NCBI RefSeq assembly: GCF_900199515.1
Contig: NZ_LT963434.1
Coordinates: 1,323,272-1,355,271, forward strand
Direction of reading: 5' to 3'
Length of the DNA stretch: 32,000 nt
Source of the DNA: Massilicoli timonensis
Lineage (GTDB): Bacteria; Bacillota_I; Bacilli_A; Erysipelotrichales; Erysipelotrichaceae
The notes beneath the pieces are model-generated. The model was not told where the DNA came from. It ran no database searches and saw only the letters and a list, made by a program, of their open reading frames with translations. Each line of letters begins with the position of its first letter. Within the stretch, counting starts at the first letter, position 1. The position numbers and the translations under genes are program-made. Positions 8,558 to 14,356 of this stretch are shown here, piece by piece.

Positions 8558-9490
8558 GTGTATGCTTTCAGTGATCGCCAAAAGAAAATCATCCGTTATC
8601 TCATGCAAATGCCGGCGTTTGTCAAAGGGAAAGTGCTTGCCGATGCTTTACATATTTCCCTTCGCACCCTGCAATATGAGATCACAGCGATCAATCAGAT
8701 CTTTCACGACAAGCTGATCCTTTCCACCAATCAAGGATATATGATCAATGCCGATACCGATGCGGATCTGCATGCGCTGTTTTTTCTGCCTGACCAGAAA
8801 AATGAACAACACGCGCTGTTGAAACAACTGCTTTTGGCACAGGACGAAATCTCTATTGATGACTTTGCCGAGCGCTGCTATCTCAGCACAAGCACACTGT
8901 TATCTCATCTAAAACAGCTTCATGCGCCGCTTGCTGCTTATCAGCTCCATGTAAAAAGAAAACACAATCATATCTGGATCGATGGCAGCGAATATGACAA
9001 ACGCAAATTGATCAATCACTTGTTGCGGGAAGAAGCAAAACCGGGACAGCCGTCTTTTGAAAAGCTGACGTCAGATTTCGGCGATATGAATCTATTGCGC
9101 TGCAAACAGATGATCGAGGCATCGATCGAGCGTTATCACTGTCATTTGGAAACAAGTTATGCCGGTGCGCTCTTCTTAAATATCGCCGTTGCGCTGTTTC
9201 GTATCCGCAATAAGCATTACATGGAAGCATTGGCGGATCCGATCGACCGCAGTTCGATCGAATATCAGATCGCCCGCGATATATGCGAACAATACGCGCA
9301 GCATTACCCCATTCATATTTATCCGGAAGATGTCGCTTACATCGCCCTGCTGCTCATCGGCCAGATCAAGCCCTATATCCTGTTTAGCGAGGAAGGTGCA
9401 AGCTCCATGATCTCTGCCGCTTTCAAAGAACAAGTACGCGCGATCCTGCATCGCACCTTTCAGTATTATATGCTTCACATTGATTATGCA
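8558..9490 (+). pseudogene. PRD-containing PTS operon regulator (LicR/CelR-like), 5' fragment truncated by IS110 copy A
   Basis: GTG start after a GAGGGG SD. N-terminal HTH (VLADALHISLRTLQYEI) then the beginning of a PRD. The host reading frame ends at 9490, and the tail 9491-9682 of the track ORF is IS sequence. Confidence 0.8.
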
Positions 9491-9502
9491 TCCTGGTATA
9501 TT
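9474..9502 (+). promoter_or_regulatory. Putative hybrid flank/IS promoter reading into IS110 copy A (TTCACA-17-TATATT)
   Basis: The -35-like TTCACA (9474-9479) is in host DNA and the -10-like TATATT (9497-9502) is inside the IS, with an exact 17-nt spacer. Sequence pattern only. Confidence 0.4.
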
Positions 9503-9790
9503 GGAAATGACTCATCTAAAAGTCATTACAACATACCTTTTCCTTTCTATCAACCTTTATACCCGTGGTTGATTACGGGGTTCATTGTCTGTATGATTGA
9601 AATATGTGAATGTGGATTTGTATTGCTCCTTGTGGCTCTGACTACTTTAGAAAGGTTCTTACCACTCCTTATTCCAAAATAATGATGAGTTAGATGAGTC
9701 TTTGAATTCGTATCTCGTTCCAGGTTTTATGGTCTAAGTGCTGTGGTTTCTTCACTTCACATACTCTTATTTCAGAAAGGATGTGTTTTT
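9491..9790 (+). ncRNA. Candidate IS110 left-end guide/bridge-type RNA region (copy A)
   Basis: 300 nt non-coding stretch upstream of the recombinase gene with dense self-complementarity: hairpin 9506-9527, hairpin 9562-9579, 11-bp pairing 9509-9519/9690-9700, 8-bp pairing 9603-9610/9756-9763. Internal TTGATT-17-TATGAT promoter at 9569-9597. Exact RNA ends unknown. Confidence 0.4.
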
Positions 9791-10975
9791 ATGTTTCTTG
9801 TTGGAATCGATGTCGGTAAGCTCTCTCACATGTTTTGCATCATGGATTCTTCCAATGGCGAAATCCTCGTCAGTCCTGTTTCTTTTAAAAACAATAAACA
9901 AGGCTTTGATTTTCTGATGGGCAACATCAAGCTTTATCCCAAAGACAAATTGCTGATCGGTATGGAAGATACAGGCCATTATCATTTCAACCTTTTGAAG
10001 TTTTTACTCGATTCCGGTTATACCGTTGCACTCATCAATCCCATAACGACCGATCTTACCCGAAAGATGCAACTAAATCCTACCAAAGACGACAACCTGG
10101 ATACCATGACCATCTGTGATGTCCTGGCTTCCAGTCCTCGTAAAAAGGGTTACAGGATTTCTAAAATCAATAATTTTGAATTTTATGAGCAGAAACGTCT
10201 GACCCGTGAACATCACGATCTCAAGGAACAATTAAACGTATATGCCAATAAGCTTCAGAAATGTATTGATATCGTTTTTCCTGAATATAACTCCCTGTTT
10301 AAATCCAAGTATGGAACTGTATATATGAAGGTCTTAAAAGCGTTTGGCTGTGCGAATGCTATTGCTCATGCCGATATCCGCAATATTCGCAAATGCTTCG
10401 AAACCAATAGGAACGGCCGCACTATTTCACTGACACCGGAAAAATTAAAAGAAGCTGCTAAGCATTCGATCGGGTTTCCTTCAAAGGCTGAAGTGATCGA
10501 AATACGTCATCTGATCGATTTGATCGAATTGATCAAAGAACAAATCAACGATGTGGATATAAAAATAGAAGAGTTCAGCACGCAACTTAACTCTCCTATC
10601 CTCACCATACCGGGAATCTCACATTTCTCCGGTACTTCTATTTTAGCTGAATTAGGAGATTTACGCAACTATTCTAAGGCGTCTCAAATCATCAAATTTG
10701 CCGGTGTTTCCCCATATAAGCATCAATCAAGTCAATATGAAGCCCAACATACAGCCATTACCAAGAAGGGATCACGATATCTTCGCAAAACACTTTATCA
10801 GGTGATCTTACCTGTTATTCGCTACAATCCTGTATTTAACGAATACTATCATCTCAAGTTGTCGCAAGGGAAAGGCCATCGTTGCGCTCAGGGACACTGT
10901 GTACGAAAGTTACTTCGGATCATCTATCATCTGGTAATAACGAATCAACCGTTTGATTCAACTCTTTTAAAATAA
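9791..10975 (+). CDS. IS110 family transposase/recombinase (DEDD RuvC-like N-domain plus Tnp_20 C-domain)
   Basis: MFLVGIDVGK..., MEDTGHYH and ICDVLA motifs in the N-domain; PGISHFSGTSILAELGD and TKKGSRYLRKTLY in the C-domain. ATG 9791 with a GAAAGGA SD is preferred over the track start GTG 9743. Confidence 0.9.
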   Translation: MFLVGIDVGKLSHMFCIMDSSNGEILVSPVSFKNNKQGFDFLMGNIKLYPKDKLLIGMEDTGHYHFNLLKFLLDSGYTVALINPITTDLTRKMQLNPTKDDNLDTMTICDVLASSPRKKGYRISKINNFEFYEQKRLTREHHDLKEQLNVYANKLQKCIDIVFPEYNSLFKSKYGTVYMKVLKAFGCANAIAHADIRNIRKCFETNRNGRTISLTPEKLKEAAKHSIGFPSKAEVIEIRHLIDLIELIKEQINDVDIKIEEFSTQLNSPILTIPGISHFSGTSILAELGDLRNYSKASQIIKFAGVSPYKHQSSQYEAQHTAITKKGSRYLRKTLYQVILPVIRYNPVFNEYYHLKLSQGKGHRCAQGHCVRKLLRIIYHLVITNQPFDSTLLK

Positions 10976-11135
10976 GTCATTACTAAATTCTTAGATCCTC
11001 TACTAAGTTCTTTTTGTCATGCCTTTTTATTCACTATTTCAAAGATCGAGACAACTTCAGCTAACTAACTTCAATAAATTTTTATTTTCAGACTTTTTCA
11101 TACAATTTACTTGATTTTTATATAGTTAGCTTTCT

Positions 11136-12099
11136 AAGCAATTTTACCTTGCATGTAGACGCTTTGATCAAGCGTGCGAAATACCATCAGTATGTAAGCA
11201 ATGCCACGACCGAAACCATTAAATTCAGTTGTCCTTTCATTTATGATGTAGCGGTCTATCTGGCAAAAGAGCTAGAGGAAGCTTTTGCCATTACGATACC
11301 GGAGGAGGAAATCGGTTTTTTAAGCATTCATATCGGTTTTGGGATCGAAAGCAGTACCAAAGAACACAACCGTGTCCGGGTATTGTTGATCTGCGAGGAT
11401 TATCATCAGAGCGCGCAGACGATCATTAAGTATTTGAAAAAAGATTATGCGGACGTCATAGAAATCAGCAATGTCATATTCGGTGTTCCCGCCAACAACG
11501 ATGAACTGGATGTCGATTTGATCCTTTCGACCATTCCTTTGTATATCTTGCATAAACGGGTCTTACTGATCTCACCGTTTTATACCGACATGGATCGCTC
11601 CATGATCGAAGAAGCGATCAGCGCCTGTTTGAAAGAGCGGAAGATCGAACAGGAGCATGACCTGCTGACGCGCTATTTTGATGAACATTTATTTTTTCAC
11701 CGCACGGACTTAACCGAAAAGGAAGAGGTGATCCGCTTTTTGGGGCAACAGATCGTTTCGTTTGGAATAGCACAGCCGGAATTTATCGATTCCGTATTAA
11801 AGCGGGAGGAAATGTCGTCTACCTGCTTTTTTGAAACATTTGCCATTCCTCATGCCATGGAGCTGAATGCAAAGAAAACGATGTTTTGTGTTCTGATCAA
11901 CGAAAATGGGATCCACTGGGATCAGCATCAGATCAAGATTGTTTTGATGATTGCCGTAAAACAGCAGGATCGACTGGAATTTATGAAGATCTACAACAGT
12001 ATCATCCACGTGCTCTGGAATCAAAGCAAGGTTGCCAAACTGATACAGGCGCAGGATTATCAGGATTTTATCAAATGCTTAAAGGCAGATATGCGTTGA
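11136..12099 (+). pseudogene. PRD-containing PTS operon regulator (LicR/CelR-like), 3' fragment (PRD2, EIIB-like, EIIA-2-like)
   Basis: ORF 11149..12099 continues the PRD (EEEIGFLSIHIGFG) and ends with an EIIA-2-like domain (FETFAIPHAMELN). The frame is open back to the IS boundary at 11136. Confidence 0.8.
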
Positions 12100-12179: not shown

Positions 12180-12650
12180 CTACTGTACCAACAGTACGAT
12201 GCTTTGCGCCAAGACGCCCTCTTCTTTTCCGACAAATCCCAAGCCCTCTCCTCTTGTGGCTTTTACGCTTACCTGGGTGATCTCACAAGCTAAAGCAGCG
12301 GCGATATTTTCCCGCATCTTTTCAATATAAGGCGCCATCTTAGGCCGCTCTATCATGATCAAGGCGTCAATATTGCCGATCCGGTAGCCGTTTGCTTTCA
12401 TCATTTTGCCCACCTCTTTTAAGATTACCAAAGAGGACATTCCCTGATAACGCGGATCCGTGTCGGGGAAATGCTTTCCCAAATCTCCTAGCGCCAACGC
12501 GCCTAAAATACTTTCCGCAATCGCATGAAGCAAGGCGTCTGCGTCAGAATGCCCAAGCAGTCCTTTCTCATGTGGTATTGTTACACCGCCTAAAATCAGT
12601 TCTCTGTCTGCGGCGAACCGATGAATATCGCTGGATTGTCCGATTCGCAT
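12180..12650 (-). CDS. ispF: 2-C-methyl-D-erythritol 2,4-cyclodiphosphate synthase
   Basis: 156 aa starting MRIGQSSDIHRF...GHSDADALLHAI...FPDTDPRY, with IspF zinc and substrate motifs. Confidence 0.92.
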   Translation of the reverse strand: MRIGQSSDIHRFAADRELILGGVTIPHEKGLLGHSDADALLHAIAESILGALALGDLGKHFPDTDPRYQGMSSLVILKEVGKMMKANGYRIGNIDALIMIERPKMAPYIEKMRENIAAALACEITQVSVKATRGEGLGFVGKEEGVLAQSIVLLVQ

Positions 12651-12672
12651 CTAATCATGCTCCTGGTATATT
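12644..12672 (+). promoter_or_regulatory. Putative hybrid flank/IS promoter reading into IS110 copy B (TTCGCA-17-TATATT)
   Basis: TTCGCA (12644-12649, in host DNA) and TATATT (12667-12672, in the IS), 17-nt spacer. Same geometry as copy A. Confidence 0.35.
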
Positions 12673-12960
12673 GGAAATGACTCATCTAAAAGTCATTACA
12701 ACATACCTTTTCCTTTCTATCAACCTTTATACCCGTGGTTGATTACGGGGTTCATTGTCTGTATGATTGAAATATGTGAATGTGGATTTGTATTGCTCCT
12801 TGTGGCTCTGACTACTTTAGAAAGGTTCTTACCACTCCTTATTCCAAAATAATGATGAGTTAGATGAGTCTTTGAATTCGTATCTCGTTCCAGGTTTTAT
12901 GGTCTAAGTGCTGTGGTTTCTTCACTTCACATACTCTTATTTCAGAAAGGATGTGTTTTT
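12661..12960 (+). ncRNA. Candidate IS110 left-end guide/bridge-type RNA region (copy B)
   Basis: Identical to 9491-9790. Confidence 0.4.
12695..12723 (-). promoter_or_regulatory. Putative outward-facing promoter in the IS110 left end, directed at ispF (TTGATA-17-TGTAAT)
   Basis: The minus strand reads TTGATA (12723-12718), a 17-nt spacer, then TGTAAT (12700-12695) preceded by TGT (extended -10 like). Downstream lies the hybrid SD AGGAG (12664-12660), 9 nt before the ispF ATG. Confidence 0.45.
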
Positions 12961-14145
12961 ATGTTTCTTGTTGGAATCGATGTCGGTAAGCTCTCTCACA
13001 TGTTTTGCATCATGGATTCTTCCAATGGCGAAATCCTCGTCAGTCCTGTTTCTTTTAAAAACAATAAACAAGGCTTTGATTTTCTGATGGGCAACATCAA
13101 GCTTTATCCCAAAGACAAATTGCTGATCGGTATGGAAGATACAGGCCATTATCATTTCAACCTTTTGAAGTTTTTACTCGATTCCGGTTATACCGTTGCA
13201 CTCATCAATCCCATAACGACCGATCTTACCCGAAAGATGCAACTAAATCCTACCAAAGACGACAACCTGGATACCATGACCATCTGTGATGTCCTGGCTT
13301 CCAGTCCTCGTAAAAAGGGTTACAGGATTTCTAAAATCAATAATTTTGAATTTTATGAGCAGAAACGTCTGACCCGTGAACATCACGATCTCAAGGAACA
13401 ATTAAACGTATATGCCAATAAGCTTCAGAAATGTATTGATATCGTTTTTCCTGAATATAACTCCCTGTTTAAATCCAAGTATGGAACTGTATATATGAAG
13501 GTCTTAAAAGCGTTTGGCTGTGCGAATGCTATTGCTCATGCCGATATCCGCAATATTCGCAAATGCTTCGAAACCAATAGGAACGGCCGCACTATTTCAC
13601 TGACACCGGAAAAATTAAAAGAAGCTGCTAAGCATTCGATCGGGTTTCCTTCAAAGGCTGAAGTGATCGAAATACGTCATCTGATCGATTTGATCGAATT
13701 GATCAAAGAACAAATCAACGATGTGGATATAAAAATAGAAGAGTTCAGCACGCAACTTAACTCTCCTATCCTCACCATACCGGGAATCTCACATTTCTCC
13801 GGTACTTCTATTTTAGCTGAATTAGGAGATTTACGCAACTATTCTAAGGCGTCTCAAATCATCAAATTTGCCGGTGTTTCCCCATATAAGCATCAATCAA
13901 GTCAATATGAAGCCCAACATACAGCCATTACCAAGAAGGGATCACGATATCTTCGCAAAACACTTTATCAGGTGATCTTACCTGTTATTCGCTACAATCC
14001 TGTATTTAACGAATACTATCATCTCAAGTTGTCGCAAGGGAAAGGCCATCGTTGCGCTCAGGGACACTGTGTACGAAAGTTACTTCGGATCATCTATCAT
14101 CTGGTAATAACGAATCAACCGTTTGATTCAACTCTTTTAAAATAA
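12961..14145 (+). CDS. IS110 family transposase/recombinase (copy B)
   Basis: Protein identical to the copy A product. Confidence 0.9.
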   Translation: MFLVGIDVGKLSHMFCIMDSSNGEILVSPVSFKNNKQGFDFLMGNIKLYPKDKLLIGMEDTGHYHFNLLKFLLDSGYTVALINPITTDLTRKMQLNPTKDDNLDTMTICDVLASSPRKKGYRISKINNFEFYEQKRLTREHHDLKEQLNVYANKLQKCIDIVFPEYNSLFKSKYGTVYMKVLKAFGCANAIAHADIRNIRKCFETNRNGRTISLTPEKLKEAAKHSIGFPSKAEVIEIRHLIDLIELIKEQINDVDIKIEEFSTQLNSPILTIPGISHFSGTSILAELGDLRNYSKASQIIKFAGVSPYKHQSSQYEAQHTAITKKGSRYLRKTLYQVILPVIRYNPVFNEYYHLKLSQGKGHRCAQGHCVRKLLRIIYHLVITNQPFDSTLLK

Positions 14146-14327
14146 GTCATTACTAAATTCTTAGATCCTCTACTAAGTTCTTTTTGTCATGCCTTTTTAT
14201 TCACTATTTCAAAGATCGAGACAACTTCAGCTAACTAACTTCAATAAATTTTTATTTTCAGACTTTTTCATACAATTTACTTGATTTTTATATAGTTAGC
14301 TTTCTTTTGTTCCTCTGTGTTTCTTTC

Positions 14328-14356
14328 ATTATAATCATAAAAGCGAAACAAGGCAA
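14328..14356 (-). promoter_or_regulatory. Putative ancestral ispF promoter displaced by IS110 copy B (TTGCCT-17-TATAAT)
   Basis: The minus strand reads TTGCCT (14356-14351), a 17-nt spacer, then TATAAT (14333-14328), 22 nt from the IS right boundary. Confidence 0.45.

Follow-up and report, generated by a model that had tools for sequence, protein, structure and literature searches.

A probable IS110-group bridge RNA with readable target guides in the left ends of two identical insertion sequences of Massilicoli timonensis

The 32,000-nt stretch of Massilicoli timonensis DNA analysed here (contig NZ_LT963434.1, positions 1,323,272 to 1,355,271; hereafter the window, with positions counted from its first letter) contains two identical copies of an IS110-group insertion sequence, and the left end of each copy very likely encodes a bridge RNA that programs the DEDD/serine recombinase of the element. 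A preliminary description of the window had proposed a bridge-type RNA at this place, and the proposal is borne out by the covariation of two guide segments with the flanks of related elements, by the PF01548 and PF02371 domains of the recombinase and by the relationship of this enzyme to the IS621 and ISCro4 recombinases. Because bridge RNAs have been predicted in 85.7% of IS110-group elements (Durrant et al. 2024, PMC11208160), one is expected here, and the element is a clear further example of a known mechanism rather than a new mechanism. All features described below lie on the + strand unless stated otherwise.

Element ends and target guides

The two copies were recognized as identical 1645-bp repeats (9491-11135 and 12661-14305), in agreement with the identical second copy reported in the preliminary description. 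To define the element within these repeats, we collected 10 metagenomic loci with an identical recombinase, 80 genomic loci with recombinases at 53-100% identity, and a sister clade (individual loci are cited by L numbers). A CT dinucleotide was found at both junctions in nearly all of ∼70 loci, every left junction read ...CT-GGTATATT, and in the right-end alignment the conservation shared by all relatives ceased past ...TATAGTTAG-CT. We also scanned metagenomes for the two host flanks of copy 1 separated by any 0-12 nt, a search that presupposed no answer, and found the empty site in one contig (L103, 530-562) as cacattgattatgca-TCCTTTCT-aagcaatttt. Taken together, the right-end alignment, the left junctions, the matches of the right guide described below and the empty site place the core of copy 1 at the CT dinucleotides 9493-9494 and 11130-11131, and those of copy 2 at 12663-12664 and 14300-14301. 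The insertion sequence proper is therefore 1635 bp long (9495-11129 for copy 1, 12665-14299 for copy 2), with termini GGTATATT...TATAGTTAG.

The left boundary of 9491 given previously is thus displaced from the true start at 9495, the earlier ends having been 4 nt too wide on each side, and the right end shrinks from the 160 nt first reported to 154 nt (10976-11129), compared with 296 nt for the left end (9495-9790). The TC at 9491-92, which closes the left target ...TTATGCATC, and the TTCT at 11132-35, which opens the right target TTCTAAG (11132-38), are target bases common to every copy and lie outside the element. The empty site, ...GCA TCCTTTCT AAGC..., agrees with these ends, and removing copy 1 between them puts the interrupted host gene back in frame (GCA TCC TTT CTA AGC), whereas a core placed at the final CT of the 1645-bp repeat, which we considered and rejected, breaks the host frame and would give the promoter at the joined ends a spacer of 21 nt rather than exactly 17 nt. 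We conclude that recombination around the CT core is scarless. An odd right junction at L001, at one time read as the resolution of a mismatched core, needs no such explanation once TTCT is assigned to the target, since the right target of L001 is TTAC.

An alignment of 55 distinct orthologous left ends, the comparison that the preliminary description had recommended, revealed both covarying stems and two short hypervariable segments amid long invariant blocks. The first variable segment lies between GGATTTG and a hairpin GTRGC...CTAC, ends in CT, and repeats the left flank of the element that carries it; the second lies directly 3′ of the hairpin, ends in AG, and is the reverse complement of CT plus that element's own right flank. 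In copy 1 these segments are TATTGCTC-CT (9621-9630), in the same sense as the left target and core, and TTTAGAA-AG (9646-9654), the reverse complement of CT-TTCTAAA. Agreement with the natural flanks extends over 13 of 13 positions for TATACGTTCC-CT at L032 and 10 of 10 for the left guide of the window against the flank of L001, with further left-guide matches at L030 (TTTGTCC-CT) and L020 (TTTTACTC-CT). On the right side, examples are CT-CTCTA at L017, CT-C[C/T]CTAAA at L036 and CT-CCAAAA at L078, and the right guide of the window, specifying CT-TTCTAAA, faces TTCTAAG at copy 1.

The association between guide and flank was assessed by permuting the pairs across guide families (5000 permutations). 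For the left guide (8 nt, 39 families) the own-pair match was 5.50 versus 4.11±0.15 for permuted pairs, and for the right guide (7 nt, 22 families) it was 4.67 versus 2.68±0.25; no permutation reached the observed value in either case, so the covariation of loops and insertion flanks that the preliminary description had named as a check was found for each guide. Match frequencies were 0.91, 0.92, 0.78 and 0.80 at left target positions −1 to −4 and 0.96, 0.96, 0.93 and 0.73 at right target positions +1 to +4 (56 sites), and the informative positions run from −1 to −5 and from +1 to +4. In a bridge-RNA target-binding loop, the 5′ guide reads in the same sense as the left arm, the 3′ guide is antisense to the right arm, and each takes in the core (PMC11208160). 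From this polarity and the covariation with flanks, we conclude that the two segments are the left and right target guides of such a loop, and both can be read directly from the sequence, which had been thought impossible by eye. The predicted target of the window element is TATTGCTC-CT-TTCTAAA; 16 distinct natural sites of this same element share ∼10 bp, GCTC-CT-TTC(T/A), and its relatives display ∼40 left and ∼22 right guide variants that have been reprogrammed naturally.

The putative partner of the RNA is a recombinase of 394 aa (9791-10975), preceded by the Shine-Dalgarno sequence AGAAAGGA (9774-9781) and containing DEDD_Tnp_IS110 (PF01548, E = 2.6e-35) and Transposase_20 (PF02371, E = 4.1e-21) domains. 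The only solved relatives found by sequence were the bridge recombinases of IS621 (8wt6) and ISCro4 (9t56), through a weak alignment (E ∼1e-12). Close homologues occur in Erysipelotrichaceae, with at least 5 copies at 99.7% protein identity in Merdibacter sp. Marseille-QA0792. The family is widespread among gut Erysipelotrichaceae and other Bacillota, at 53-100% identity to the window enzyme and remote from IS621 and ISCro4.

A left end longer than the right one, with the candidate RNA upstream of the recombinase gene, is the layout of the IS110 group. Of the IS1111-group hallmarks, a right-end RNA and subterminal inverted repeats of 7-17 bp, the first does not describe this element, as both variable guides lie in its left end, and no repeat linking the ends stood out on visual inspection, the right-end alignment not having been screened for flank-matching guides. 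The segment 9491-9790 had been described as free of an open reading frame (ORF) of its own, and the list of ORFs agrees: those overlapping it are one that reads through from the disrupted host gene, starts of the transposase frame that are GTG-extended or frame-shifted, and one antisense ORF of 72 aa.

The bridge-RNA core and its donor side

The guides lie within a conserved core at ∼9603-9763 (12773-12933 in copy 2), closed by a terminal stem (9603-9610/9756-9763). In the structure that we derived, the target-binding loop (9612-9665) has the outer stem GTGG/CCAC (9612-15/9662-65) and an inner hairpin (9632-9645), both nearly invariant, with the pair 9634-9643 alternating between G-U and A-U. 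The donor-binding loop (9668-9738) consists of an outer stem (9668-75/9731-38), a short stem (9677-79/9726-28) and an inner hairpin (9694-9711), and a small hairpin (9743-9755) completes the core. Seven of the 8 pairs of the donor outer stem undergo double changes, including 9671-9735 from A-U to G-C in 8 sequences and 9674-9732 from C-G to U-A in 11. The RNA core would accordingly fold as two stem-loops with large internal loops, the first aiming the element at TATTGCTC-CT-TTCTAAA and the second, through short matches to the element's own ends (AGTTAG for the right, ACC/TCC-AG for the left), presumably holding the circular donor.

To measure the support for this structure, we counted its pairs in the 55-sequence alignment and compared the counts with those for slid and shuffled controls; an all-against-all helix search that allowed G-U pairs had proved too noisy in so AT-rich an alignment. 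Standard pairs occupied 89.9% of cells, versus 34-47% when the structure was slid and 87.1% when the alignment was shuffled; 25 pairs had changed on both sides, versus 8-16 and 14.5; and the covariation score was 0.142, versus ∼0.045 and 0.096, with 0 of 500 shuffles reaching the observed value. Frequent G-U pairs in the stems are compatible with the + strand only. A covariance model built from the window family (R1, 166 positions) scored 178 bits on both window copies. The left end had been called unusually self-complementary: its structure is borne out by covariation, whereas its thermodynamic signature is modest, with folding z-scores of −2.1 for 9491-9790 and −1.2 for the RNA core. Among the individual pairings proposed earlier, TATGTGAA/TTCACATA is present where it had been placed, while ATATTGGAA/TTCCAAAAT contains one mismatch in the window, is paired in only 61.8% of cells in the orthologues and is therefore not supported.

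On the donor side, the likely right donor guide is (T)CC-AG (9719-9723), whose reverse complement is the CT-GG(TAT) of the left terminus. Nearly all orthologues have ACC-AG here (within an invariant ACCAGG), the window has TCC-AG and L099 has AUACC-AG, and the match covers 3-5 nt plus the core. The donor loop mirrors the target loop in position, and the 3′ sides of the two follow the same pattern (target, AG-GUUCUUA-CCAC; donor, AG-GUUUUAU-GG). As left donor guide we tentatively propose AGTTAG(AT) (9688-9695), which in the main clade matches the right terminus TATAGTTAG-CT (11119-11131) over 6 nt and is positioned like the left target guide. The donor DNA that these segments would meet is the joined-end sequence TATATAGTTAG-CT-GGTATATTGG. 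Another candidate right donor guide, TATACC in the loop of stem 9549-55/9567-73, was dropped as it is not conserved in orthologues. In L058 a 15-nt insertion (∼200-225) enlarges the loop of the donor inner hairpin, and part of it could form an extra small hairpin (ACCCTTTAGGGT); this loop evidently tolerates added sequence.

Promoters, the leader and competing explanations

Joining of the right and left ends, as in a circular intermediate, creates a promoter motif that neither end contains alone. The −35 box TTGATT (11111-11116) lies in the right end and the −10 box TGg-TATATT, whose hexamer TATATT ends the extended motif at 9497-9502, in the left end, with a 17-nt spacer across the CT core; the motif TTGAYT-17-TGgTATAWT was present in 44 of 44 distinct junctions reconstructed in silico by joining the ends through one CT. 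Excision would thereby assemble a strong promoter with a predicted start at ∼9509. A consensus scan also recovered the internal sigma-A-like promoter that the preliminary description had placed at 9569-9597 (TTGATT-17-TATGAT). It is kept as TTGAnn-17(±1)-TAnnAT in 52 of 55 left ends, with a spacer of 17 in 45 of these 52, and its predicted start at ∼9604 falls right at the base of the terminal stem enclosing the RNA core. Such a promoter could yield both the RNA core and recombinase mRNA from integrated copies, but its −35 box is part of a stem that covaries, and we consider the chances that it functions to be evenly balanced. At copy 1 the host flank supplies TTCACA 17 nt 5′ of TGgTATATT (9474-9502; 10 of 12 matches), giving a hybrid promoter from which transcription of this integrated copy could begin at its outermost end.

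The ∼110 nt that precede the core form a structured leader. A leader hairpin (9495-9537) combines an outer stem (9495-9503/9529-9537) with the hairpin 9506-9527 of the preliminary description and is followed by UUUUCCUUUCU, a U/C-rich tract; the composite hairpin has a ΔG of −13.8 kcal/mol and a z-score of −4.0. The outer stem reaches 11 bp in orthologues (the first 9-11 nt with 9527/9529-9537), is kept in the sister clade, and shows compensations of T>A with A>T and of G>C with C>G as well as CAAA/TTTG in L091, and the closing pair of the inner hairpin covaries from U-A to C-G. The earlier hairpin 9562-9579 likewise exists and shows double compensatory changes, as one of two interlocked stems within 9549-9579 (9549-55/9567-73 and 9562-66/9575-79) with double changes in 6 of 7 and 4 of 5 pairs, respectively. 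The 3′ strand of the first of these holds the internal −35 box. Full coexistence of the two stems as an H-type pseudoknot is unlikely because a 1-nt linker would have to cross a 7-bp stem.

Complementarity to a terminus also occurs elsewhere in the family. In the sister clade (L090, L091, L097-L100), the sequence AAUAUACC, 5 nt after ACCAG, complements the left terminus GGTATATT exactly; its apparent partner there is UGUAUU, within the 5′ strand of the donor outer stem, and the main clade does not have it. In the right end of the window element, an internal GCTAACTA (11060-11067) complements the element's own terminus TAGTTAGC (11123-11130); most orthologues have CTAACTA there, and GATAACT is found where the terminus is AGTTATC (L090, L098). 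Each terminus thus has its own internal partner, that of the right end mirroring the outer stem of the left.

The leader is linked to the donor loop by an 11-bp long-range helix between GACTCATCTAA (9509-9519) and TTAGATGAGTC (9690-9700), which the preliminary description had singled out. It is paired in 95% of cells and is almost invariant in the main clade, where 12 sequences carry a C-A mismatch. These mismatches initially led us to dismiss the helix, a judgement reversed by the sister clade, which has two-sided changes at positions 7, 8 and 9 (L090, L091, L098, L100); L080 additionally compensates position 4, for four to five independent compensatory double changes overall. The minimum free energy (MFE) fold of 9509-9764 contains the helix. 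The compensatory changes argue that the helix is a selected pairing between the structured 5′ leader and the donor loop. It starts at the predicted start of the junction transcript and overlaps both the left donor guide candidate and the donor inner hairpin. A second complementarity joins TCCTTTCT in the leader (9541-9548) to the recombinase Shine-Dalgarno sequence AGAAAGGA, with 88% of cells paired and no double changes. This same TCCTTTCT is also identical to the middle of the target of the element itself (TC-CT-TTCT). A 10-nt direct repeat, AAGTCATTAC, occurs in the leader (9520-9529) and just past the recombinase stop (10974-10983); it is probably due to chance, as orthologues do not conserve the sequence that follows the stop.

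One explanation for the leader is that it gates the bridge RNA, so that one guide RNA would adopt two conformers, in integrated and in circular elements. Transcripts from the junction promoter (∼9509) or from host read-through would carry GACUCAUCUAA, which could pair with the donor loop at 9690-9700, together with the anti-Shine-Dalgarno tract, and transcripts from the internal promoter (∼9604) would lack both. We regard this idea as unlikely, though if true it would solve, from within the element, the "chicken-and-egg" problem described for IS621 and could bias the balance between excision and insertion.

Several observations weigh against the bridge-RNA reading or against parts of it. No Rfam 15 family matched the left end at gathering thresholds, with only noise at E≤10, so the database search suggested in the preliminary description gave no assignment; model R1 likewise finds nothing in the IS621 locus (L102), and homology to a characterized RNA is not demonstrable by these searches. 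Single-sequence MFE folds lack the target loop and are not unusually stable, although modest stability is expected of an RNA dominated by large internal loops. The donor guides are short invariant matches without covariation, in an alignment whose termini are themselves nearly invariant. In the sister clade, moreover, the G of the right terminus becomes T (TAGTTAT) without a matching change in the left donor guide candidate, which reads AGTTTG, AGTTTA or AGTTAG, leaving only AGTT (4 nt) matched. The long-range helix would cover this candidate in any transcript from the junction promoter, and the simple bridge-RNA picture is to that extent incomplete. Finally, the internal −35 box is part of a stem that covaries, and this alone could account for conservation of the box.

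This last point bears on the strongest competing explanation, in which bridge RNA comes solely from the circle-junction promoter or from read-through, the transcript being ∼255-280 nt long with the leader included, and the internal promoter is a by-product of the stem and an AT-rich linker. The junction promoter is perfect in all 44 families, and the long-range helix requires 9509-19 and 9690-9700 to be present on the same RNA, which means that transcripts with the leader must be of importance. Furthermore, the internal −35 box drifts to TCGAyT in L069, L075 and L081 with its stem still paired, and IS621 itself relies on a junction promoter, its integrated copies depending on read-through transcription (PMC13626964). 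Against this, the internal −10-like TAnnAT keeps T1, A2 and T6, the spacing holds at 17±1 in 52 of 55 left ends even though the sequence between the boxes varies freely, and the start falls at the foot of the terminal stem. We judge this explanation a serious contender, albeit with somewhat less than an even chance of being right.

A different reading of the leader treats its complementarities as RNA-DNA contacts that extend donor recognition, 9529-37 with the terminal GGTATATTG and 9690-9700 with 9509-19. Both partner segments are found no more than 25 bp into the left end, in what is the right donor arm, and they covary with RNA-encoding segments as guide-donor pairs would; in addition, 9495-9503 lies upstream of the junction-promoter start and is absent from that RNA. 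However, the outer stem and inner hairpin form one continuous stable hairpin (the z-score of −4.0 given above), and the analogous internal inverted repeat of the right end points to hairpins rather than guides. A contact 15-25 bp from the core would also require far more DNA to be melted than reportedly is in the IS621 complexes. We therefore hold such donor contacts to be improbable.

The left end might lastly be no more than a regulatory 5′ untranslated region (UTR) or promoter with protein-binding DNA and no guide role, and promoter-like motifs, terminator-like hairpins and an anti-Shine-Dalgarno-like tract (9541-48 against 9774-81) are indeed present, but this view is very hard to sustain, as it leaves unexplained two flank-tracking hypervariable segments of the correct strand polarity and covarying stems that contain G-U pairs.

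Insertion sites and comparison with known systems

The decoded guides account for the positions of these elements in ribosome-binding sites. The reverse complement of the target reads TTTAGAA-AG-GAGCAATA, a Shine-Dalgarno sequence plus spacer, and the opposite strand of the common site sequence is AGAAAGGAGC, also a Shine-Dalgarno sequence. A start codon (ATG, GTG or TTG, followed by at least 40 open codons) occurs on the opposite strand 6-18 nt beyond the core at 40 of 61 distinct family sites, compared with 13% of random positions. We conclude that the family usually inserts in ribosome-binding sites, just upstream of start codons and facing away from the gene. The right target guides are themselves Shine-Dalgarno-like, among them UUUAAGGAG and UUCUAGGAG.

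Copy 2 follows this rule, splitting the Shine-Dalgarno sequence of ispF (12180-12650, minus strand; TATACC-AG-GAGCATGATTAG-ATG). An adjacent AGGAG is kept through duplication of the core AG (12640-12670, minus strand), and the upstream half of the site, with any native promoter, has been moved 1.6 kb away. The flanks of this copy (12631-12660 and 14306-14335) are chimeric: in L007 its left flank occurs with another right flank, and in L009 its right flank occurs with a different left flank (the loci compared include L003), which points to a deletion or rearrangement between two copies of the element in certain strains. Copy 1 is an off-consensus insertion inside a gene, with 5 of 8 left target and 6 of 7 right target positions matched. 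It breaks a transcriptional regulator with Mga-HTH, PRD and PTS-EIIA domains (8558-9490 plus 11136-12099) in the second PRD domain, and the metagenome contig with the empty site (L103, 530-562) carries the uninterrupted allele. Elsewhere in the family, the initial 18-46 nt of the left end are duplicated in tandem in L072 (1-100) and L085 (779-830), and at the right junctions of L042 and L091 the right end and CT are followed by GGTAT..., a partial left end; these may be junction remnants, tandem copies or products of self-targeting.

Preference for ribosome-binding sites has a precedent in the actinobacterial IS900/IS901/IS902/IS116 subgroup, which inserts in a fixed orientation between ribosome-binding site and start codon at the reported consensus CATG-N4-6-*-CNCCTT. 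Those elements are unrelated in sequence to the one described here, whose preference (GCTC-CT-TTCT and variants) is read directly from the guides. The leader helix has an analogue in the fold-back inhibition of IS10 and IS50, in which outer-end sequences complement downstream functional sites only in transcripts that come from outside or from the very end; by this analogy, one of the sites masked in the window element would be the donor loop of a guide RNA. Natural retargeting among relatives, as seen among the window orthologues, is shared with ISEc21, whose seekRNA suffices at 58-74 nt, in contrast to the conserved core of ∼160 nt found here (Siddiquee et al. 2024, PMC11187229).

The closest parallels are IS621 and ISCro4 (Durrant et al. 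2024, PMC11208160; Hiraizumi et al. 2024, 2026). They share with the window element an RNA in a long left end upstream of a DEDD/serine recombinase, scarless insertion at a CT core, and a junction promoter whose −35 box comes from the right end and whose −10 box comes from the left. The RNAs also agree in having two stem-loops with internal loops, the 5′ side matching the left arm in sense, the 3′ side complementary to the core and right arm, and in the succession of guide, 0-1 nt and hairpin. The differences are that the window RNA has no detectable sequence or structure homology to that of IS621 when searched with model R1, and the recombinases align at E ∼1e-12; that the 296-nt left end of the window element places a structured leader of ∼110 nt before the core; that its family has a conserved internal promoter-like element and a covarying helix from the leader to the donor loop; that its donor matches are shorter; and that its target is a ribosome-binding site rather than a REP element. 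In a limited literature search that included the supplements of PMC11208160, we found no description of this element family, and no paper coupling an IS110 bridge RNA with an internal promoter.

New here are the decoded guide and target code, the preference for ribosome-binding sites, the internal promoter-like element and the helix between leader and donor loop. The target code is fully read, with guides, core, ends and natural sites all in hand, and the family is a ready source of orthogonal bridge systems of low GC content. The internal promoter and the leader helix, if functional, would reveal the way in which an IS110 element provides and regulates its guide RNA ahead of excision. This question has been addressed only recently for IS621, where the answer is read-through transcription, and a promoter resident in the element would be a different solution (PMC13626964).

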